DNA of 64,000 nucleotides from Myxococcota bacterium (GTDB lineage: Bacteria; Myxococcota_A; UBA9160; UBA6930). The stretch is taken from contig OZ245015.1 in NCBI GenBank assembly GCA_965223705.1, positions 3,680,001-3,744,000 of the forward strand, in the 5' to 3' direction. Below are positions 6,211 through 30,336 of this stretch, in pieces. The notes beneath the pieces were generated by a model. The model was not told where the DNA came from. It saw only the letters and a list, made by a program, of their open reading frames with translations, and ran no database searches. Position 1 is the stretch's first letter. Every line of letters begins with the position of its first letter. Made by a program: the position numbers and the translations under genes.

Positions 6211-6948
6211 TCAACCGTCGGTGAGCGTCAGCAATACGTCCGCGTACCAGGCACAATTCAATCCGAGCGGCTCATCGAGTTCCGCATCCCGGATACCGAG
6301 GTCGATGCGAGCGGAATGTATCCCCAGCAGCACCCAAGGAAGAGATCCTCGACCGGCTCCGGAATGCATCACCACGGGCGCTCCGCTGATACCGCGATGG
6401 GTACGTCCGTCCGTGAGAAAGTATCCGTTGCCTTGGAATCGCAGCCCGAACGAGGACGCGACAATCGCGTGTCGCGCGACGGGCATCTGGTGAAGGGTAT
6501 CGCGAAAGCCGAGGGGAAAACCAACGACCAGTAACGACGCGCCGACTTCGACCCGCCCAAGGTCAGCCAAGAGGTGTTCGGGCGTGAACATGTCGTAGAC
6601 CAGCGGGTCTGGAAGCGCACCGCGATCAATTTCCAGAGCTGCGACGTCGATCATGCCGGAGGAGTCTTCGGTTTGGCGCCATAGGCTCGTGCCATCTCGA
6701 TACAGAGGAATCGAGAAGCTCTTCGTTTCAACGACGTTCTCGGGATTGTTGTGGAGATCGATCCGTACGGCGTCGGGGCGGTGATTGCTCGCCTCGTCAA
6801 TCAGGACATGGCGGCTGGTCACCAAGAACAATCGCTCGTCGCGCTTGAAGAAGAACCCCGTTCCATTCGTAAGCGTCGTGTCACCCAGAAAGGTGTCGAT
6901 ACGTACGATCGCGAGTAAAAGAGATTCGACGATTTGGGGTGCGTTCAT
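6211..6948 (-). CDS. Trypsin-like serine protease
   Basis: GTGFF, VTSRHV (His), DVAAL (Asp), GISGAPV (Ser). Confidence 0.85.
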   Translation of the reverse strand: MNAPQIVESLLLAIVRIDTFLGDTTLTNGTGFFFKRDERLFLVTSRHVLIDEASNHRPDAVRIDLHNNPENVVETKSFSIPLYRDGTSLWRQTEDSSGMIDVAALEIDRGALPDPLVYDMFTPEHLLADLGRVEVGASLLVVGFPLGFRDTLHQMPVARHAIVASSFGLRFQGNGYFLTDGRTHRGISGAPVVMHSGAGRGSLPWVLLGIHSARIDLGIRDAELDEPLGLNCAWYADVLLTLTDG

Positions 6949-7219
6949 GCGATGCCCCTAGCGCAATTCTCATGCCGATCAGGAATTCGCATGGTGGGCT
7001 TTCACACGACTTAGCATCAGGGCCTTCCCCGTGACTCCATTTGGGTGTGGGGTCCCGGCGACCGCGCGTAACGAGTCGCTTTTGAACCAACATTTTCTGC
7101 AGGAGATCATTGTCGGTGGGAGCGCCCACACTCGACACGGCTTGGCGCACGGTGGTCGAGTGGCCGAACTGTGAAACCGAGTCTCAGGTCGGTTGATAGC
7201 TATAGAGGGGCTCTGGAAT

Positions 7220-7312
7220 TTGTGAGTCCCGTGTGAGTCCCGGCTATTTTCGAGTTCGGAAAACCCAACAATTCCGGATACTTAGTGGTGGAGGCGGCGG
7301 GAATCGAATCCG
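7220..7312 (-). repeat. att-like repeat copy 1: tmRNA 3' fragment plus paired arm-type repeats
   Basis: 7220-7308 identical (89/89 by eye) to 29904-29992; contains TGTGAGTCCCGTGTGAGTCC and TGGTGGAGGCGGCGGGAATCGAA. Confidence 0.92.
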
Positions 7313-7386
7313 TCGCCTGTCTCGCCGGCGGTTGTTTCTCGCAGGCCGGAGTCAAGGCTCAGGCGCTTAGCCGGTCCGGAACACAC

Positions 7387-7403
7387 CTGGTAAACTTTCC
7401 CAT
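7387..7403. promoter_or_regulatory. Palindromic operator copy abutting DUF6502-like start; contains -10-like TAAACT
   Basis: CTGGTAAACTTTCCCAT, matching sites at 13462 and 13482; no RBS, suggesting a leaderless mRNA. Confidence 0.55.
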
Positions 7404-8264
7404 GTGGACGACCCGAACGAATCGAGATCCCCCGGGGCAGTCTCGCGAGCTCTCCTGAGCGCTGGGGCGCGCGTACTCCGCCCGCTTGTTCACCTGCTCA
7501 TCGCGAATCAGGTGACGTTTCCCGCGCTCGCCAAGATGTTGAAGGGTCTCTACGTGGAAGTCGCCCGAGAGGACTTTCGCCTCGACGACCGACCGATGAG
7601 TCAGAGTAGAGTTTCGATTCTTACAGGCGTACACCGCAAAGATGTCCGGAGCCTGTGGGCAGAGCCTTCTCCGTCATCCGCCGCACCTGAGAGCGTCTCG
7701 CTGGGCTCCCAAGTCGTGATCCTCTGGATGACCGATCCTCGCTTTACAACCGCCGACGGAAAACCCCGTCCGCTAGCACGATCCAAAGAGTCGACAGACG
7801 CGCCCGGCTTCGACGATCTCGTAACAGCCGTAACCCAAGACGTGTGGCCCCGCTCAATTCTCGACGAGTGGCTTCGCCTTGGCGTCGCAGAGATTGATGC
7901 GGATGGGAACGTTGTCTTGGCCCGCGACGCATACGTACCCGAGCGCGGCTTTGACGAGAAGGTGTTTTTTCTCGGGCGTAACGTTGGCGATCACTTGTCA
8001 GCTGCGTCCGCGAACGTTCTTGGACGAGCAGAGCCCTTTCTCGAGCGCGAAGTAAACTATTTGCAGCTCACTCCTACCTCTGTGCGCGAGCTTTCGTCTC
8101 TCGCACGCGAGATCGGTTCCGATGCCCTTGAGCAAATCAACAGAAAGGGACACGAGCTAAAGAAGCGCGACGCCGACGACTCATCGGCAGACCAGCGAAT
8201 CGCTTTTGGAGTTTATTTTTACTCCGAGCAAGCGCCCTCTGAAGACGACGAGGGTGAAGCGTGA
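7404..8264 (+). CDS. DUF6502-like protein, putative transcriptional regulator
   Basis: LRPLVHLLI, SQSRVSILTGVHRKDV (HTH-like), W.TDPRF....G.PRPL, FDDLV..V.QD..PRSILDEWLRLG, FLEREVNY, IAFGVYFY. Confidence 0.8.
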   Translation: MDDPNESRSPGAVSRALLSAGARVLRPLVHLLIANQVTFPALAKMLKGLYVEVAREDFRLDDRPMSQSRVSILTGVHRKDVRSLWAEPSPSSAAPESVSLGSQVVILWMTDPRFTTADGKPRPLARSKESTDAPGFDDLVTAVTQDVWPRSILDEWLRLGVAEIDADGNVVLARDAYVPERGFDEKVFFLGRNVGDHLSAASANVLGRAEPFLEREVNYLQLTPTSVRELSSLAREIGSDALEQINRKGHELKKRDADDSSADQRIAFGVYFYSEQAPSEDDEGEA

Positions 8265-9601
8265 CGACCCGATTGCCGAAGCCCGCGCTCTTGCTGGCCA
8301 TCGCGCTGATCGTGGTCGCAGCGCCTCAAGGAAGCCGCGCCGCGTGTCCGGACGTGCTCATTCAGGGCGATCCCGAAGGCATCGGTGGAACGGGTTACGG
8401 CGGTGACCAGGGCACCGGCGGAACGGGCTACGGAGGCGACGAAGGAATTGGTGGAACAGGACAGAGACCAGGGGATGAGGGTCCTGGGGGTACCGGCATC
8501 TTCGGAACGATCACGGGTTTTGGATCGATCTGCGTCAACGGCTTGCAGGTGGACTACGAACCTTCGACACCGGTAGCTGTCGACGGGCTTCCGGCCTCGG
8601 CCAATGCGCTCAAGGTCGGAGACACCGTGTGGGTTGAAGCGGACCGCCGTGGAAAGCAATTGCGCGCCCGAAAGATCCATGTGCAGTCTGTCCTTGTCGG
8701 TCCGGTTGATTCCACATCACCGGGCTCACGAGAGTTGCGCGTTATGGGAACCGCGGTTTCCCTGGGGCCGGGTACTGTGTTTGCAGATCGCGCGACTGGG
8801 CGATCTCTCACCCGTGCTGAAGTCTCTAACGCCACCGTAGCCGTGCGAGGACTCATGGGACCCTCCGGTGCTGTCGTCGCGAGTCGCGTCGAACGAGTTC
8901 CCTCTGAAACACCTGCTCGTGCGTTTGGCCGAATTTCGCGGCGAGGGAGTGTGAAAATCGGCGGGATCGAAGTGTCAGGGAGAGCGCCGATCCAGCCTAC
9001 AGGTGCTTTGGTCGTCGCGGAGGGGCGCTGGTCGCGAACGCAACGGCGAATTGATGTCACCGATGTTTCGGACGCTTGGTCGGGGTCGAAGAACGCGCGA
9101 GAACTGTCGCTCGAAGGCCTCGTGCTCGACAAGACAAGTGGAGCGATCGAACTCGCCTATGGAAACGTCACGGCTCAGCGCGCCGAAAGCCTTACCGGAA
9201 TTCGCGCAGGCGATCGCGTCGTCGTGCGAGCACGTCCCACAGGCCCGGGCCGCTTCGATGCACTTGAAGTTCGGCGAGTGAGGGTGAGTCCTGAGGGGAC
9301 GAGATTCCGGACAAGGGGATCTCGGGCCCGCGACGAAGAAATCGACTCGTCAGACGAACAGTCCGATGACCGATCCGGGCGCGGCCGGTCCGATCGCTCG
9401 GATCGAACGGAGCGTTCGGAGCGAGCAGATCGGGCCGAGCGATCCGAAAGGTCCGAACGCGCTGAAAGACCCGAGCGATCGGAACGGCCTGAGCGTCCAG
9501 AACGGGCAGAACGCCCTGAAAGACCGGAACGACCTGAACGGACCGAACGTCCTGAAAGACCGGAGCGTGCAGAACGACCTGAACGCGCTGGACGGGACTA
9601 G
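8261..9601 (+). CDS. Secreted DUF5666-like multi-domain protein with (E/D)RX repeat tail
   Basis: Signal peptide; GIGGTG repeats; GTITGFGSICVNG; repeated OB-like units; GTGA overlap with upstream stop. Confidence 0.8.
   Translation: MTTRLPKPALLLAIALIVVAAPQGSRAACPDVLIQGDPEGIGGTGYGGDQGTGGTGYGGDEGIGGTGQRPGDEGPGGTGIFGTITGFGSICVNGLQVDYEPSTPVAVDGLPASANALKVGDTVWVEADRRGKQLRARKIHVQSVLVGPVDSTSPGSRELRVMGTAVSLGPGTVFADRATGRSLTRAEVSNATVAVRGLMGPSGAVVASRVERVPSETPARAFGRISRRGSVKIGGIEVSGRAPIQPTGALVVAEGRWSRTQRRIDVTDVSDAWSGSKNARELSLEGLVLDKTSGAIELAYGNVTAQRAESLTGIRAGDRVVVRARPTGPGRFDALEVRRVRVSPEGTRFRTRGSRARDEEIDSSDEQSDDRSGRGRSDRSDRTERSERADRAERSERSERAERPERSERPERPERAERPERPERPERTERPERPERAERPERAGRD
9390..9598 (+). repeat. 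Degenerate 9-bp coding repeat, (E/D)R(S/A/P/T) x ~22
   Basis: DRSDRTERSERADRAERSERSERAERPERS...ERAGRD with varied synonymous codons. Confidence 0.9.
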
Positions 9602-11490
9602 TTCGCCCCGAGGAGCTCCAACTCTCGCTTCGCGTCAGCTGCCCCGGGATCCAATTTGAGCGCCCGACGAAAAGCGTCTCGCGCCTCGTCGTTACGACTT
9701 TGTTGGGCGAACAACCTTCCGAGATTGAACCAGGCGTCGGTGTCCCTAGGGTCTCGATCGACGACTCGACGGTACTCGTCCTCCGCTTCAACAAGGCGGC
9801 CTTGCTGAACCAAGACACGAGCGAGGTTGAAACTCGCATGGGGATGACGGGGCGCAACGGCGAGGACCTTTCGGTAGGTCTCTTCGGCTTCAGCCCAAAG
9901 GCCGCGACGAGCCAGGACCACACCCAAGTTGTGGCGCGCAGAAACGAACTCCTCATCTTCGACTAGCACGCGCTCGTAGTACCGCATGGCGTCTTCGTCA
10001 CGTCCGCGATTCTGAGCGATGGTACCGAGGATGTAGAGACTCTCTGCATCGGTCGCATCAATTTCAAGACTACGGAGCGCCGCGCGCTCGGCCTCGTCAT
10101 CTTTTCCAGCCCAAGCCAGCACCTTCGCCAGGTTTCTCAACGATCGTCCGTGCTCGGAAAGATCGATACTCGCAATTTCTTTCTCGGCGAGCTCTAGCGC
10201 GAGTCCGCGATCCCAGTTGGTATTCGCGGATACCCACCCTTTCTGTACCAGCGTCTCTACGATCTCGGCACCGAGAATCGCGTGAGTCTCTGGGTTGGGA
10301 TGCACGTGATCGAGAAAAGATTCCTCTCCGGGAATCTGATGACGATCCCGACGAAGCAGGCGCGGGAAGTCTACCGACCAGACGCTCGGTGCTTCAGCGA
10401 ACTCCCGGACGGCTTCCACAAACTCCGAGGGAGCACGTAACGGACAAACATCTTCGTCTCGTGCACCGACAAAGGCTGCTTCGGCACTCGACTCGTCTCC
10501 CGCGCGAAGCCGTCGCTCCCCGAGTTGGTACAACCAGTCGGCCCGCCGAGGATCAATCTCGAGCGCTTTCTCTAGTTCTGAGATTGCCATCTCATCGTCC
10601 GCGTTCAGTTCCCCGGATGAGACGTTCTTCGATGCTTCTGACTTGAACGGAGAGCAGCTTCTCAAGTTCGACGCCGGAACGACGGCCAACAGCTGAGCAT
10701 CCGATCTCCGAGTTTGGTCGGCGACGCGGCTCAGGTTGAAGCGAAAGTGTTCTAGGATCGCGGCTCGCTTCGCATCGTCCCTCTTGTAGGCATCGGGCCC
10801 GATGCTCGAGTCAAGCACCGTGACAACGTCGTCCCTCAGGCCACCTGATTCGGTGAAACCGCGAAGCCTCGAAGCGGCCCGGTGGAGCAACGAATACGTC
10901 CGCGCTCCACTCAGAACTTCGTCGGCGGACCGTATCCAGCGTGGTGAGTCACGCAGTTCCCGATAAGTTCTTTCCTCTAGAAATTCGTTGTGCCCGGTAT
11001 AGAGAACGACGAGGTCGGGTTCGTAATGCGCGATCTCATCCATGAGTCTCGCGACCCTATAGCTCGCGTAGCTGATCCCCCCGGCGTTCACGACCTCGAA
11101 CTTCGCTTCGGGTTCAACCAGGGAGAGAAAGCGGCGCAGCCAACCGCAGAACGAGGTCCCATCGTCGAACGGTCGCCCATACGTTGTTGAGCCGCCTAAG
11201 CAGAAAATGCGCCGGTTCTCGGCCGGCTTCACCACCCGGAAACGCTGAACGTTGAACCACCGTCGCTTGTTTGGGGCGGTGACGAACCAATCAGCGTTTC
11301 CGGACTCGCGGACAAAGACCGGCAAGCGGCTGCCCTCGAACCCGAGGTAGGGATCCTCCTGGGCTGTTCGCACCGGCGTGCCGAGAACGTACAAGATGGC
11401 TTCTACGAGCAGATAGAAGACGCAAATCACCCCCAGAGAAAACAGCAGTTTCTTGGGAACTGAAGGACCCGTCTCCGATCCGCGCGCCAT
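9598..11490 (-). CDS. SGNH/GDSL-like hydrolase domain + C-terminal TPR protein, N-terminal membrane anchor
   Basis: LGGSTTYG, NAGGISY, GHNE, DHVHP; several TPR repeats (NLGVVLA, FNLARVL, FNLGRLF). Confidence 0.8.
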   Translation of the reverse strand: MARGSETGPSVPKKLLFSLGVICVFYLLVEAILYVLGTPVRTAQEDPYLGFEGSRLPVFVRESGNADWFVTAPNKRRWFNVQRFRVVKPAENRRIFCLGGSTTYGRPFDDGTSFCGWLRRFLSLVEPEAKFEVVNAGGISYASYRVARLMDEIAHYEPDLVVLYTGHNEFLEERTYRELRDSPRWIRSADEVLSGARTYSLLHRAASRLRGFTESGGLRDDVVTVLDSSIGPDAYKRDDAKRAAILEHFRFNLSRVADQTRRSDAQLLAVVPASNLRSCSPFKSEASKNVSSGELNADDEMAISELEKALEIDPRRADWLYQLGERRLRAGDESSAEAAFVGARDEDVCPLRAPSEFVEAVREFAEAPSVWSVDFPRLLRRDRHQIPGEESFLDHVHPNPETHAILGAEIVETLVQKGWVSANTNWDRGLALELAEKEIASIDLSEHGRSLRNLAKVLAWAGKDDEAERAALRSLEIDATDAESLYILGTIAQNRGRDEDAMRYYERVLVEDEEFVSARHNLGVVLARRGLWAEAEETYRKVLAVAPRHPHASFNLARVLVQQGRLVEAEDEYRRVVDRDPRDTDAWFNLGRLFAQQSRNDEARDAFRRALKLDPGAADAKRELELLGAN

Positions 11491-11493
11491 ACC

Positions 11494-12294
11494 CTAGAAG
11501 TCGATCCCGATTGACACTCCCGCTCCCCAATCAGCGGCTCCCTCCGAGAGACCCGCGACTCCATACCCACTCAGGATGTAGCGGTCCGCGAATCGCCAGG
11601 AGAAATATGGAACAAGCTCGTGAGAATCGGAGGCTCCCGAGCTCGCTGCCTCGCGGTAGTCGTACACGAGACCAACTTGGGTGCGGCGCGCTAGGCGATA
11701 ACCGGCGCCAACCGACGCGAAGAACACGTCGTCGAGGTCAAAATCGGACGGATCCCCCAAGAAGCGGTAGCCCACCGTCGTGAAGGCGAGCACTTTGTCG
11801 AAATTCTTGGAGACGTCGACCTGTGCGGTGTAGTCGACCTCGCCTGTCCCGAGATCTCGATCTTCATCGGCCGTCGGGACCTTGACCTTGCCTGTCAGCT
11901 CGAGAATCGGCCAAGCGGAATCGGTTTCCGGATAGTGGATGTAGCTGCCCGAAAGCACGACATCGCCAAGACCTGAGTTGGTTTCTGTTCCGACCGCATC
12001 TTCATCAACGATGATATTTCCATCGGTCCCCGCTACGACGCCGCCCGGCCCGTCGATTCGGATGTACGGCACGGTGGCCTTAAAGAGAAAAGGTTCGGCA
12101 TCGTATCGGATGGTCACGGGTACGTAGAGAATGTCCGTGTCATCGCTTTGCCCGTAGTCGCCGCTGGTAAAGTTGACCCCGGAGCTGATCCGCAGGCGCC
12201 GCCGGTCGTCCGCGTCGTCCGCCCAGGATGCGCCGGCTAGAGATACAGCGACCCAAGGCAGCAGCACGGCAAGCGTATGGTTTGATTTCCACAT
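11494..12294 (-). CDS. Outer-membrane beta-barrel (MetA-pathway/transporter-like)
   Basis: Signal peptide; SGDYG, SGLGD, KVPTADEDRDLGTGE.DY; terminal Phe (GVSIGIDF). Confidence 0.75.
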   Translation of the reverse strand: MWKSNHTLAVLLPWVAVSLAGASWADDADDRRRLRISSGVNFTSGDYGQSDDTDILYVPVTIRYDAEPFLFKATVPYIRIDGPGGVVAGTDGNIIVDEDAVGTETNSGLGDVVLSGSYIHYPETDSAWPILELTGKVKVPTADEDRDLGTGEVDYTAQVDVSKNFDKVLAFTTVGYRFLGDPSDFDLDDVFFASVGAGYRLARRTQVGLVYDYREAASSGASDSHELVPYFSWRFADRYILSGYGVAGLSEGAADWGAGVSIGIDF

Positions 12295-12322
12295 GATTGT
12301 CCCCTCTGATTTGTAGAGTCAG

Positions 12323-12979
12323 TTAGTCCCGAGAAGCGCGATCCGCTCGTTCCGCACGCTCGGGCCGATCCGCTCGTTCCGCGCGCTCGGGTCGATCCGC
12401 CCGCTCCGCGCGCTCGGGTCGATCCGCCCGCTCCGCGCGCTCGGGCCGATCCGCTCGTTCCGCGCGCTCGGGTCGATCCGCCCGCTCCGCGCGCTCGGGT
12501 CGATCCACCCGCTCCGCACGATCTGCTCGGTCCGCTCGGTCGGCCCGGTCCGCTCGGTCCGCGCGATCGGGTCTCCCGTCTCGGCGCACCCGTTCACCAA
12601 GGAAGTTCCCATCTTGATCGAAGAACTGATCGACCCGAACCCGCGATCGAGAACCATCCGGATTTCGCTCACGAACTTCGTGCCGTTCCTGTGTAATTCC
12701 CGTCACCGGGTCGGTGCCGACTTGGAAGCGCTCCCGACGCCGGCTCCCGTCCGCGCCGCGGTCGCGGTCGTCATCAATGGTCCGTAGGTCGATCTCGGGA
12801 AAATCTCTCGCGTCCGCACCGTTCGGTCGATCGCGAAGGGGCTGACTGTCATCAATGCTTCCGTCGCCGCGAAGCTTAACGCCCTCCGGAGTCAAATCGT
12901 CCCTTGGACTCTGTGCTCCCGCAGTGGCTGCGAAGAACGATGCAAAGATCACGGCGAGTAAGTAGGTTCGGTAGTTCAT
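12323..12979 (-). CDS. Secreted low-complexity protein with (DRA)n/(RPERAERAD)6 tail
   Basis: Signal peptide (..ATAGA-QS); R/D/E-rich; RBS GAGGA. Confidence 0.8.
   Translation of the reverse strand: MNYRTYLLAVIFASFFAATAGAQSPRDDLTPEGVKLRGDGSIDDSQPLRDRPNGADARDFPEIDLRTIDDDRDRGADGSRRRERFQVGTDPVTGITQERHEVRERNPDGSRSRVRVDQFFDQDGNFLGERVRRDGRPDRADRADRADRADRADRAERVDRPERAERADRPERAERADRPERAERADRPERAERADRPERAERADRPERAERADRASRD
12341..12502. repeat. Six tandem 27-bp repeats (coding RPERAERAD on minus strand)
   Basis: ATCCGCYCGYTCCGCRCGCTCGGGYCG x6, followed by degenerate 9-mers. Confidence 0.95.
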
Positions 12980-13010
12980 CAGAAAATCCTCGATGCTAGA
13001 GGTAAAGGTG

Positions 13011-13035
13011 CCGCCGGCCCTCTCGGGGCCGGCGG
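13011..13035. terminator. GC hairpin between first two genes of the minus operon (weak terminator or mRNA stabiliser)
   Basis: CCGCCGGCCC-tctcg-GGGCCGGCGG perfect 10-bp stem; only a weak U-tract. Confidence 0.5.
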
Positions 13036-13041
13036 TCCCGG

Positions 13042-13446
13042 CTAGTCCTCAAAAAAAGTTCCTTTGAGAGGTCCCACGACGACGTCGTCGCCTGCATTCA
13101 CCGGCGGGAAGTTCGGCGGGAAAGGCAGGTCCCCGACCTCCTCGGCGGCTCGATCGTCGAGGTCGACTTCCCCGACTCCGAAGTTGTCGACCGCGACCAA
13201 GACGCCGGTGTCCACTCCGTTGACCAAGACAGCGAAGGCCTCGCCGGGCGTGAAGCCTTCGATTTCCACGGAAAACTTCCGTCGACCTTCGCGTACCTCC
13301 CAACGCGCTTTTCCACTCACGTCGCCCGCGTCAACGGTTGCCCGCATGCGGGTCTCTAGGCGCTCCCGGTCGTCGCCTCCGGCCGCTCCCAACGGAATCG
13401 AGAGCGCGAAAAATGTTGCAACCAGCGAAGTCCACCATCTCTTCAT
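13042..13446 (-). CDS. Secreted beta-rich hypothetical protein, 134 aa
   Basis: MKRWWTSLVATFFALSIPLGAAG signal; RBS AAGGAG; SGKARWEVREGRRKFSVEIE. Confidence 0.75.
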   Translation of the reverse strand: MKRWWTSLVATFFALSIPLGAAGGDDRERLETRMRATVDAGDVSGKARWEVREGRRKFSVEIEGFTPGEAFAVLVNGVDTGVLVAVDNFGVGEVDLDDRAAEEVGDLPFPPNFPPVNAGDDVVVGPLKGTFFED

Positions 13447-13461
13447 TGACCGATCTCCTTC

Positions 13462-13514
13462 ATGGGAATCTTTCCCATTACCTGGGATTATTTCCCATGT
13501 ATCGTCGATGTCAA
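13462..13514 (-). promoter_or_regulatory. sigma70-type promoter overlapped by two palindromic operators
   Basis: TTGACA (13514-13509)-N16-AATAAT (13492-13487); ATGGGAA-TCT-TTCCCAT 13462-13478; CTGGGATTATTTCCCAT 13482-13498. Confidence 0.72.
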
Positions 13515-13689
13515 TGGAAAAATGAGGTGAGAGAGCGCACAAAATGCCGGTTTTTTGCCGCACTGCGTGAGGAAGAGCGGTCCGCTAGCCGGAGGGAAGC
13601 GATCTAAGCCGCTGCGGGCTCAGCGGGTGGCCCCGCGGCAGTAGTATGGATGGGAGATTGACGAGGTCGGGGGCGTAACCGCTCGCGAC

Positions 13690-14154
13690 TTAGGGTTCGT
13701 TGCAGCCGAGCGCGCGCAATTGATCCCGCCAACCCGCGACGTCGAGGGGGCCAACGAGAGTTTTCCGCTCACCCCCTCGACACACGAGGTTCATGGGCAG
13801 TCCGCGACCGCCCACCTTTCGAAAGACTTCGCCTGTCGCGTCCCGGAGCATCCGAAGTTCGAGCTGCTCCCCCGCTAAAAACTCCTCGATAACGTCCGCT
13901 GCCTCGCCGACGTTGACGGTCAGGATCTGAACTGTGTTTCCACAGTTGCGGCGCGCTCGTTCCAGTGACAACAGATCCTCGCGGCACGACGGACACCAAG
14001 TCGCCCAGAAGTGCAGCAGCTCAGTGGTCTTTCCCCCGGAGGCACAGGCGACATGCGGCTCCCCGTGGAGTGTCGTCAGGGAGATGCCCCCATGCGACGC
14101 ACCGACTAACGAAGCTGCAAGGACGGCGAACGCAACACGCGGGCTAAAACGCAT
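13690..14154 (-). CDS. TlpA/ResA-like periplasmic thioredoxin
   Basis: HFWATWCPSC, VNVGE, GLP; signal-like N-terminus. Confidence 0.85.
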   Translation of the reverse strand: MRFSPRVAFAVLAASLVGASHGGISLTTLHGEPHVACASGGKTTELLHFWATWCPSCREDLLSLERARRNCGNTVQILTVNVGEAADVIEEFLAGEQLELRMLRDATGEVFRKVGGRGLPMNLVCRGGERKTLVGPLDVAGWRDQLRALGCNEP

Positions 14155-15190
14155 ACTGAAAACCTACCGACCAGATCGGATCTTCGTCCTGACGTCCGTA
14201 CAACGCGGAGTCGGTGACCGGTAGTTGAACTGCGGCACGAAGCAGCGGGCCGCGGTTCTTCTCAACCCACGGGATCCGGATCTTGATCGACGGCGTGGCG
14301 TAGAAGATCGACCCCCCACTGTCCCGATAACGGAGGCCTCGAAACTCGTCGAAATCTGCCCAGCGGTAGTTCATTTCCATTCCCAGGGTCAACCAGTCCA
14401 GCGAACGGTTGCCTAGGGCATGGCCTACGGGAAGCTCGAGTGCAAGGTTGGCCAGCACGATGTCGCCATACTCGTACTTCAGGCTTCCCTTCGTGTTCTC
14501 GCGATAGAAAATGCTCCCGTAGAGCGATACCCACTCGAGGCGATGGACCCCGCCGAGCCCGACGCCGAAGTCCCAGGACCCGGTCCCCAGTTGGAGATGC
14601 GGATCGGTCAACCCTCGCGTGCTACGGCTGCTCTTTCCCGTAGGTCCCTTCAAGAACAGCGTTCCCTCGAGCCATGTCGAGGGCAGAACGTCCCGGTTTC
14701 GCCAGAGCATATAGTTGGCGCTGACCGAGATATCTCCCAGGCCATCCAGATCAATGGTCTGGCGTTCGTCCCCTTCGAACTCGGTGATCTTGTTCATCAT
14801 GAAGGGAACGTCGAGCGTGAGTGTGAGACGATCAAAGGGTGACCAGCTTACGAAGAGGTCGAGACGCCGGCTGTCGTTCTTCTCTCGGTCATGCGTCTCT
14901 CCTTCCTCATCGCCATGCTCATCGTCGCCGTCCTCCTCGTGGCCGTGCCCGCCGGGCAGCACACCACTCTCCTTTTGCCAGCCTTTCAATTCAAGGTAGA
15001 CGGAGACGTCTCCCTCGGTGAGCGCGGTCGTTCCGTGACTCGAGAACCGGGCGTCTCCGGCTTGGCAGATCGAGCAAGCTTCGGAGCCTCGCGGTGAAAA
15101 TGAAATGATCAATACGAGTGCGGCCGCGAATAGCAGCCTACGTGTGGACATTGGTATCCCCAGCGTTGTGAGTTTTCGAAGCGAATCCAC
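14144..15190 (-). CDS. Outer-membrane transporter-like barrel with N-terminal CxxC and His/acid-rich loop (start uncertain, may be MSTRR)
   Basis: SEA-CSIC, GHGHEEDGDDEHGDEEGETHD, GLGD, PTG, QLGTGSWD, terminal YAF. Confidence 0.75.
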   Translation of the reverse strand: MDSLRKLTTLGIPMSTRRLLFAAALVLIISFSPRGSEACSICQAGDARFSSHGTTALTEGDVSVYLELKGWQKESGVLPGGHGHEEDGDDEHGDEEGETHDREKNDSRRLDLFVSWSPFDRLTLTLDVPFMMNKITEFEGDERQTIDLDGLGDISVSANYMLWRNRDVLPSTWLEGTLFLKGPTGKSSRSTRGLTDPHLQLGTGSWDFGVGLGGVHRLEWVSLYGSIFYRENTKGSLKYEYGDIVLANLALELPVGHALGNRSLDWLTLGMEMNYRWADFDEFRGLRYRDSGGSIFYATPSIKIRIPWVEKNRGPLLRAAVQLPVTDSALYGRQDEDPIWSVGFQYAF

Positions 15191-15211
15191 AAGGCGGACG
15201 GGTGCGAAAGC

Positions 15212-15529
15212 TCAGGCGGCTATCGGGACGGAATCCTCAGGTTCTGGGCTCAAGGAGGTCGGGCGGATGTCTGGCGCCGGCGGTGCCAGTTCGAACAGCT
15301 TAAGGGCTGCGATTTCGAGCCCGGGTCTCAACACCGGGTCGAAACCATTCGATGCACCGCTCGCGCGGGGGAGCCTGTCGCATCCGCAGGGACAGGACAC
15401 CTTGAAGTAGGTCCCATCCGACTCACTAGAAAACGAGTAACTGCCGGATATTGCGCAGGGTACCGCCGACGCGGCGACAAAGACGATCGCAGTCAACAGA
15501 ACAGTGATGAGGCGGGCTCTCGGCACCAT
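15212..15529 (-). CDS. Small exported Cys/Pro-rich protein (DUF2946-like leader ORF candidate)
   Basis: Hydrophobic N-terminus, CPCGC, Pro-rich C-terminus, directly upstream of barrel gene. Confidence 0.55.
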   Translation of the reverse strand: MVPRARLITVLLTAIVFVAASAVPCAISGSYSFSSESDGTYFKVSCPCGCDRLPRASGASNGFDPVLRPGLEIAALKLFELAPPAPDIRPTSLSPEPEDSVPIAA

Positions 15530-15619
15530 GCGCTTGGCATACTATCCCAAGGGCTTTCGCACCTAGCGCTAGCTGTCAGAGCGCTTGGAGTTTTTGGCCT
15601 TCACTGCACAGGTGGCTGT

Positions 15620-15783
15620 TTGTGAGTCCCGTGTGAGTCCAGGGCTTATTCGGACTCGAAAAACCCAAAGATTCCGGTTAGTTATTGGTGGAGGCGGCGG
15701 GAATCGAACCCGTCGCTTGAGAAATAATCTGTTTTGTTTTCGGTACCTTACGAGGCTGGAGTTGTGAGTCCGGTGTGAGTCCC
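15620..15783 (-). repeat. att-like repeat copy 2 with arm-type repeat pairs on both sides (attP-like junction)
   Basis: 15620-15708 colinear with copies 1/3 (14 mismatches in 89); 27-bp core 15686-15712 identical to ssrA 3' end; second TGTGAGTCCGGTGTGAGTCCC at 15763-15783. Confidence 0.9.
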
Positions 15784-29903: not shown

Positions 29904-29996
29904 TTGTGAGTCCCGTGTGAGTCCCGGCTATTTTCGAGTTCGGAAAACCCAACAATTCCGGATACTTAGTGGTGGAGGCGGCGGGAATCGAACCCG
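29904..29996 (-). repeat. att-like repeat copy 3 (ssrA 3' end plus downstream arm)
   Basis: Identical to 7220-7308 over 89 bp. Confidence 0.92.
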
Positions 29997-30336
29997 CGTC
30001 CGCATGGCTTCGGACTGCCGCGTCTACGTGCGTAGGTTTCGCTCGATCTCGATCACACCAGTCGCGATGCCAGGAGAAGTGCGATCCAGGTCGACGTGTG
30101 TCTCGCCCCCGGATGCGGCCGACCAACGGCCGGGGGCACAGTCTCCTGAATGACGCCCGCGGTCCCCTAGGAGACGTCAGGGACGGGCGTCGCTGGCTTA
30201 GCTTCTAACTAAGCAGCGAGTGCGTAGTTGTCGTCGGCAGTTATCAGCTACCAACATGCCACCTGTTTAACGAGGGTTGTGACGACCTCGGCACGCAGCG
30301 ATAGCCTTCGACCACCCGTCGAAGCCGATCGCCCCC
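29970..30336 (-). ncRNA. ssrA: tmRNA; tag peptide ADDNYALAA* at 30238-30209
   Basis: 5' GGGGGCGATCGGCTTCGAC; 3' GCGGGTTCGATTCCCGCCGCCTCCACCA; ATAACT-GCC resume context; ~367 nt; TAGACT -10 upstream. Confidence 0.97.

Follow-up and report, generated by a model that had tools for sequence, protein, structure and literature searches.

The question raised by this locus is what its DUF6502 gene controls, through which DNA site, and in response to what. The gene lies in a 64,000-nucleotide stretch of a Myxococcota bacterium genome (assembly GCA_965223705.1, contig OZ245015.1, positions 3,680,001 to 3,744,000), which is called the window here and whose own numbering is used. It runs towards a convergent minus-strand operon, and copies of one palindrome stand at the promoters of both. 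A sequence-only reading of the window had proposed that DUF6502 is an autoregulated repressor that acts at TGGGAA-N3-TTCCCA, controls a six-gene envelope regulon and senses a ligand through its C-terminal domain. We find that the three palindromes are very probably the operator of DUF6502, that the predicted fold of the protein resembles that of the cyanobacterial regulator HetR, and that the exported protein encoded by the next gene carries a short motif, GxGGTG, that is a candidate for the ligand. That DUF6502 is uncharacterised was borne out by a literature search, in which no function, operator or ligand of this family (PF20112) was found, subscription journals mostly and supplements lying outside its coverage. 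As that reading had also said, DUF6502 precedes DUF5666, both here and in pairs annotated by NCBI on plasmids of Rhizobium, Methylocystis, Azospirillum and Pseudoroseomonas; three papers mention DUF5666, each in a table row without a function.

The palindromes were confirmed at 7387-7403, 13462-13478 and 13482-13498, the upper two with the 20 bp spacing that had been claimed, and so was the TTGACA-16-AATAAT promoter, which runs on the minus strand from 13514 to 13487 with 11/12 matches and is the sole promoter-like site from a promoter scan of 6800-14400. At the lower site, 7387-7403, a G-to-T change creates TG-N-TAAACT at 7388-7396, from which we infer an extended -10 box lying 7 bases upstream of the DUF6502 start codon, GTG; the site would then serve as promoter and operator of a near-leaderless mRNA, transcription being predicted to begin near 7402-7404 here and near 13480 at the minus-strand promoter. 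A TGGTA-type variant of this kind stands 5' of the DUF6502 gene in 18/80 loci of the clade called B below, the window locus included. The start was also correctly described as lacking a ribosome-binding site, there being no Shine-Dalgarno sequence before the GTG at 7404. An ATG 2 bases before this GTG opens a short out-of-frame reading (7402-7461) and occurs at the same place in the nearest homologue, locus L040; it could tune translation of a leaderless mRNA.

The window by itself does not lift the motif above chance: 3 matches with at most 2 mismatches were found, against a mean of 1.69 in 100 shuffles of which 20 reached 3. Likewise, genome-wide matches with one mismatch showed no enrichment, 11 having the 3-base spacer and 6-16 having each of the other spacers. 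Perfect matches numbered 2 with the 3-base spacer and 0 with spacers of 0-2 and 4-8 bases, and both are at DUF6502 loci: one of these perfect 15-bp cores is in the window, and the other is about 750 bp upstream of a second DUF6502 copy, from which it is separated by the preceding gene. When a position matrix built from 120 sites of other genomes was scanned on this 4.54-Mb genome with a 65% GC background, ranks 1-5 went to the three window sites and to two at the second DUF6502 copy (33.7 to 18.2), whereas the next score was 15.6 and a reversed-matrix control reached at most 11.7. The next-best positions, C1:4423495 (15.6) and C1:1980252 (14.3) of this genome (G000), are both above that control maximum and are possible distant members of the regulon.

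DUF6502 is present in 40 of 101 related genomes, and the exact 15-bp pattern TGGKAWWHWTTCCCA occurs in 24 of these 40 versus 1 of the other 61 (reversed control 2/101), a contrast whose weight is lessened by the pattern having been drawn partly from loci of the same relatives, which as kin are not independent, and to which no P value is attached. The single match in the DUF6502-free set belongs to genome G057, in which no DUF6502 was detected. The sequence-only reading had staked itself on the motif being enriched upstream of DUF6502 homologues, and this is what was found in metagenome loci: among the best 80 of 508 loci, 71 had 250 bp upstream (the rest were too short or cut) and 63 of the 71 carry the site there, as against 0/71 in the gene, 0/63 downstream and a mean of 0.9 after shuffling. 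The counts in other locus sets were 13/31, 3/5 and 4/29. The last of these is that of the 15-bp pattern in the gamma-class set, and it is low because this set consists of clade A, which has a 16-bp site; more generally, low counts arise because some genes are internal to an operon and the site stands at the first gene of that operon (L006, L168), and because there are two clades. A scan of genome contigs with a single protein gave 5 DUF6502 loci, and the family was found in 71/301 genomes sampled from the class of a Burkholderiaceae metagenome-assembled genome (MAG) (one, G364, unpublished). It occurs in named alpha-, beta- and gammaproteobacteria as well as in Myxococcota/Deltaproteobacteria MAGs; in Rhizobium 3841, for example, a perfect site stands before RL_RS33230, beside the DUF6502-DUF5666 pair RL_RS33240/RL_RS33235. 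These cross-genome tests place the motif far above chance.

A tree of 119 DUF6502 proteins, made after removal of those more than 85% identical, splits in two clades with support 1.0, and the length of the site follows this split. In clade A the core is one base longer (16 bp) in 27/39 genes and the 15-bp core is found in 0/39. In clade B, 72 genes had enough flank: the 15-bp core alone is found in 49, the 16-bp core alone in 2, both in 6 and neither in 15. Of the 101 genomes, 14 have a clade-A-type gene, and 12 of these 14 contain the 16-bp pattern, compared to 0 of the 87 others; 3 of the 14 were assigned to the clade because their protein is nearly identical to one in the tree, and one with a partial gene (G073) was assigned from its genus. 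Four divergent matches to the family (L155-L158), taken up as possible HetR intermediates, were included in the site comparison and the tblastn comparison. The family consensus operator is the 17-bp GTGGGAAWWTTCCCAC, so that the operator proposed earlier holds as a motif tied to DUF6502 and is refined to this consensus, the second clade having the 16-bp core. In 35 of the 58 clade-B loci with a site, the site lies inside a TTGAC-16/18-type promoter of the divergent gene, compared to 1/58 when the -35 box was read backwards. The site centres in these promoters are at -22 (26 cases) and at +10 to +15 (19 cases), and these are, judged by position, blocking positions. Because the sites overlap promoters of the sigma-70 type, repression is likely. 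What is found, then, is a conserved palindrome at the gene's own promoter and at target promoters whose coordinates overlap putative core promoter elements, and this supports the earlier reading of an autoregulated repressor. On this comparative evidence it is highly probable that DUF6502 binds the palindrome, and we hold with good, somewhat lesser, confidence that it represses rather than activates.

The protein matches PF20112 with 123 bits against a gathering cut-off of 27, over model positions 2-267, and its AlphaFold2 (AF2) model has a predicted local distance difference test (pLDDT) score of 84.6. The model contains a helix-turn-helix (HTH) at residues 38-93, in agreement with the HTH-like N-terminal segment noted earlier; the C-terminal sensing domain stands to the extent that the predicted domain resembles the hood of HetR and a candidate ligand is encoded in the next gene. 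In PMC4649674, HetR is described as having three domains, with an alpha-beta-alpha-beta hood, the flap and the hood being novel folds; PatS6 docks on the hood as an additional strand, with release of DNA. When the full DUF6502 model was searched with Foldseek, HetR chains took ranks 1-5 (E 0.05-0.15), and VIA-align among the Foldseek candidates placed HetR at rank 1 (Z 7.5, 220 aligned, residues 18-276 against 13-298, root-mean-square deviation (rmsd) 10.5 Å). In a wide search with the full model HetR was the sole listed row that spans the whole protein (204 residues). The C-terminal domain folded alone (residues 176-278) has a pLDDT of 93.8, and when this hood-only model was compared with 48,161 chains, HetR hoods took ranks 1-2 (Z 6.2 and 6.0, rmsd 3.2), the top match, 4YNL_B, being aligned over 76/76 residues and the next chains being single helices with Z 4.7. 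The hood strands show as confident extended chain in the monomer model, and the hood residues N204 (100%) and R215 (97%) are conserved over both clades, as would be expected of a pocket. HetR is represented in the PDB by 4J00, 4IZZ, 4HRI, 4YRV and 3QOD, with 4YNL as the hood-peptide complex.

The resemblance to HetR thus extends over several features. DUF6502 has a similar size (about 290 amino acids), the order HTH, flap-like domain and hood is found on the predicted model, with a middling score, the predicted hood-like domain aligns over all of 4YNL_B, and the palindrome has GGG...CCC arms and lies at the gene's own promoter. Among the differences, it has no detectable sequence similarity to HetR (8-14% identity in structural alignments), and it would govern a local envelope regulon in non-cyanobacterial hosts, whereas HetR acts in cell differentiation in filamentous cyanobacteria. 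A search for solved sequence relatives gave weak L10 and designed-helix matches, which were taken as chance, and an ESM Atlas search without the PF20112 requirement gave no usable match. In the literature searched, no paper was found on a HetR homologue outside cyanobacteria or on a HetR-like protein in proteobacteria.

The partner gene supplies the candidate ligand. The start of DUF5666 overlaps the stop of DUF6502, and its product has four GxGGTG repeats right after the signal peptide, in residues 40-79. The motif is common in the family: in 103 of 130 cases the 700 bases that follow a DUF6502 gene encode G[ILVM]GG[TS]G on that gene's strand, with 0, 1 and 1 in three controls; 15 further DUF6502 genes were too short for the count. 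Among the 27 misses, most of those having an exported partner carry variants with the same G[T/S]G core, as judged by eye, and several have no partner there. The motif is placed directly after the signal peptide or the lipoprotein cysteine in 1-10 copies, several of them in tandem in many clade-B partners. By eye, some partners have twin-arginine-like signals (L151, L152, L007) and others Sec or lipoprotein signals, and this mixture indicates that the motif is independent of the export route. The literal PatS motif RG(S/T)GR was considered and set aside, as its 21 matches in open reading frames (ORFs) of the loci include none just after a partner signal peptide in the context examined; what the partners carry there is GxGGTG. 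Peptide variants follow sub-branches of the regulator, namely GMSGTG and G[E/T]xGTG (L021-L024; L129, L135, L142, L146), and hood residues change along with them; these sub-branches are possibly specificity groups, and shared ancestry fits as well.

After export PatX is cleaved in the periplasm, and HetR is bound by its hexapeptide at 88 nM (PMC12756182); the DUF6502 partner is like it in being exported with a short motif of G[S/T]G core, and it differs from PatS in that GxGGTG is arginine-less, often tandem and fused to DUF5666 domains. A complex was predicted for two DUF6502 copies and partner residues 36-70, a 35-residue internal piece, with the peptide partner scored. The score was 0.57 versus 0.00 for the best of 3 controls, the runs agree in at least 64% of contacts and the partner pLDDT is at least 49. 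The mark for this score is reached by 116/157 solved and 2/215 mismatched pairs. We put the binding of the GxGGTG peptide to the predicted DUF6502 hood at about even odds.

The mechanism that we favour is as follows. A dimeric DUF6502 repressor of HetR-like build, with HTH, flap-like winged helix and hood, would bind the 17-bp GTGGGAAWWTTCCCAC and shut both ends of the cassette, that is, its own near-leaderless promoter, which would also drive the DUF5666 partner, and the convergent operon, which codes for exported proteins, the outer-membrane barrel and the TPR/SGNH protein. The GxGGTG units after the partner's signal peptide would be cut out after export and would return to the cytoplasm, where the peptide would join the hood as an added beta-strand, like PatS/PatX in HetR, and free the repressor from DNA. 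A rising peptide level would in this way lead to repressor release and to a self-amplifying peptide switch for the envelope module. The sequence of export, cleavage, return, hood binding and release may be the most likely control step, and its chances are evenly balanced; the repressor-operator and HetR-like core, taken jointly, is considerably better placed and is likely to be right.

Several results weigh against this reading. As regards the site, 15/72 clade-B genes have none within 300 bp, and with a 50% GC background the 7388 site falls to rank 6 in the matrix scan. The DUF6502 motifs are GGG-N7/N8-CCC and the sites are placed for repression, whereas in PMC4649674 the HetR motif is ggg-n5-ccc and HetR is mainly an activator. 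As regards the fold, HetR ranks only 6 in the wide full-model search (Z 6.5), the best Foldseek E is 0.05 with a full-length rmsd of 10.5 Å, all Z values are below 8, and Foldseek with the hood alone puts the HetR hood 8th of 10 (E 8.7) and gives no match at E ≤0.001. PDB sequence searches with the DUF6502 protein and profiles A1, A2 and A3 listed no HetR chain at E ≤10, and no HetR family is among the 25 listed of 53 Pfam families. As regards the peptide, the complex score of 0.57 is in the range in which, by the tool's own account, predictions are wrong more often than right; at 0.60 or under the mark is reached by only 18/157 solved pairs and by both mismatches. The score could also be inflated by resemblance to the solved HetR-PatS complex. 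GxGGTG is without the two arginines of PatS that HetR needs (PMC4649674), and no protease or importer was identified. Because there is no sequence match, Z stays below 8 and the operator spacing is another one, DUF6502 should not be filed as a HetR; on its predicted structure it is HetR-like in look and working without being a member of the HetR family. We nevertheless think it likely that the two share ancestry.

The explanation that best survives beside the returning peptide is that repressor and operator are right as proposed while GxGGTG is a processing, secretion or assembly tag read by some other part, such as the outer-membrane barrel, the hood sensing something else or nothing. Several points would suit a tag: the motif, which follows the signal peptide or the lipoprotein cysteine, would be extracytoplasmic, no importer or protease was found, linkers often contain glycine-rich motifs, the score of the complex is weak and the barrel is a frequent neighbour. 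What argues the other way is how closely the motif keeps to DUF6502. At loci with DUF5666 on both sides and both N-termini present (n=10), GxxG[TS]G is found in the downstream copy in 9/10 and in the upstream copy in 1/10, where it is a poly-Gly linker; since the upstream copies mostly lack it, the motif is not needed by the DUF5666 fold. It is kept in seven partners without a Pfam match. Of 18 loci in which DUF5666 was not seen beside DUF6502, the motif is absent from the DUF5666-type frames of 16, some of which are marginal matches and one of which is cut at the N-terminus, and the 2 that bear it are a locus with a DUF6502 fragment at a contig end and a 1.6-kb contig of a DUF6502-bearing genome. 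DUF6502 is the one constant neighbour of the motif; clade-A partners retain the motif too, although no match to the barrel was found at any clade-A locus (flanks mostly 1.5 kb). A tag is a serious alternative, its chance falling somewhat short of even.

A second possibility is that the motif binds the hood while still on the un-exported precursor, as co-repressor or export monitor, so that expression would be tied to export capacity with no diffusible signal. An import route would not be needed, the partner always comes directly after the regulator and here overlaps its stop codon, and the complex was predicted with an internal piece and not with a free hexapeptide. On the other hand, a signal-less cytosolic PatX did not bind HetR in a two-hybrid assay and export was required (PMC12756182), and tandem copies, up to 10, in many clade-B partners are as expected of a precursor that is cut up. 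We regard this possibility as unlikely.

MerR-type activators bind around -22, which coincides with the commonest site centre in clade B, and this would suit a DUF6502 that binds the site and activates, or has a dual role as HetR does. The spacers counted are normal ones of 16-18 bp and not of the long MerR type, many sites are at +10 to +15, and the window sites cover the -10 box and start. HetR itself is an activator (PMC4649674), and even so activation seems to us slightly less likely still. It is very improbable that some other, global regulator binds the palindrome or that the palindrome is a mere promoter feature, for although in some copies its A/T-rich centre also serves as a -10 box and G057 has its one match, the motif is nearly absent where DUF6502 is absent, the top sites in this genome are confined to DUF6502 loci, and a site length that tracks the protein clade makes another regulator hard to argue.

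Another known comparison is with the RRNPP-type regulators of Gram-positive bacteria, for example PrgX, which use a TPR sensing fold. The logic proposed for DUF6502 resembles theirs, in that an exported precursor yields a returning peptide that changes a co-encoded regulator, and differs in that a TPR fold is not among the listed matches for the DUF6502 model and the hosts have an outer membrane.

The features of the cassette are collected in Table 1.

Table 1. Coordinates, strand and basis of the features of the DUF6502 cassette in the window (signal peptides of exported proteins were read by eye)
Feature	Position	Strand	Basis
Autoregulatory operator of the DUF6502 gene (putative)	7387..7403	.	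sequence
DUF6502 regulator, 286 aa	7404..8264	+	PF20112 E 1e-35
HTH of DUF6502, residues 38-93 (predicted)	~7515-7682	+	AF2 model
Winged-helix/flap-like domain of DUF6502, residues ~94-180 (predicted)	~7683-7943	+	AF2 model
Hood-like domain of DUF6502 (predicted)	~7956-8228	+	AF2 model, fold searches
Exported DUF5666 protein, Arg/Glu/Pro repeat tail	8261..9601	+	PF18914 E 2e-15; signal-peptide-like N-terminus by eye
Four GxGGTG repeats, candidate peptide ligand	8378..8497	+	
Membrane-anchored SGNH/GDSL-like + TPR protein, last gene of minus-strand operon	9598..11490	-	same place in L163, L164, L165
Outer-membrane beta-barrel, Phenol_MetA_deg-like	11494..12294	-	Atlas feature matches 0.99; PF13557 on 13-67% of cluster members
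Exported 218-aa protein, Arg/Ala/Asp/Glu repeat tail	12323..12979	-	no Pfam match; homologues in L037, L163, L164
Exported 134-aa protein, first gene of minus-strand operon	13042..13446	-	ATG 13446, AAGGAGA before it; no Pfam match
Operator centred ~+10 of minus-strand promoter, adjoining ribosome-binding site (putative)	13462..13478	.	matrix score 20.5
Operator centred on -10 box of minus-strand promoter (putative)	13482..13498	.	matrix score 22.5
Sigma-70-type promoter TTGACA-16-AATAAT	13487..13514	-	promoter scan

L163, L164 and L165 share the convergent arrangement and have sites at both ends, and L162 has it in a rearranged form, which indicates that the sites follow promoters. The barrel is the commonest further member of the regulon, with tblastn matches in 48 of the loci compared, some of them the same place counted twice. 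The 134-amino-acid first gene had no tblastn match among the comparison loci, and the regulon is therefore flexible. Thus, of the six-gene envelope regulon proposed earlier, envelope-type genes under the sites stand, and a gene set fixed at six does not, given this unmatched gene and the second locus. That second DUF6502-DUF5666 locus lies at G000:C1:367969-370650 (L006:7970-10656), has the two best-scoring sites and is flanked by an exported 169-amino-acid protein and a divergent gene for a PQQ-type dehydrogenase; the two DUF6502 paralogues probably cross-regulate.

Some further observations concern the cassette and its surroundings. Near-identical Arg/Glu/Asp/Pro repeat tails end two regulon proteins (9390-9600, 12323-12560), and similar tails are common among clade-B partners. 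A G+C-rich inverted repeat seen by eye at 13011-13035, separating the first two genes of the minus-strand operon, is not in the terminator scan list. At 13690-15529 there are a thioredoxin-like gene, a second MetA-pathway-like barrel and a small exported Cys-containing protein, without an operator match, and these share an att-bounded segment with the DUF6502 cassette. Copies of the 3' end of transfer-messenger RNA (tmRNA) are found at 7219-7319, 15619-15719 and 29904-29996, several with the same flank, the tmRNA gene itself being at 29970-30336 on the minus strand; the cassette and the three further genes are bounded by two of these copies, and seven more partial copies occur further along the contig (G000:C1 3,614,687-3,635,320). 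The pattern suggests cassettes inserted at tmRNA in a tandem array, and of the three largest minus-strand ORFs checked before the tmRNA none is an integrase.

Taken with the partner gene, the predicted fold suggests a non-cyanobacterial counterpart of the peptide-controlled HetR, whose patX-hetR module is described in PMC12756182 as restricted to filamentous cyanobacteria. A broader proposal is made tentatively, as its chances are rather below even: DUF6502 may be the wider family from which HetR comes and, with its GxGGTG exported partner, a widespread Gram-negative switch of the HetR/PatX type, in which a precursor would be exported, cut into hexapeptides and re-imported to release the repressor. 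Sequence alone is enough to read out the operator, the targets and the candidate six-residue ligand. A family of such size whose predicted build is that of HetR would bear on the origin of HetR, and, if the proposal is true, there would be peptide autoinduction outside cyanobacteria and Gram-positive bacteria, in a relative of the cyanobacterial Turing-pattern module.

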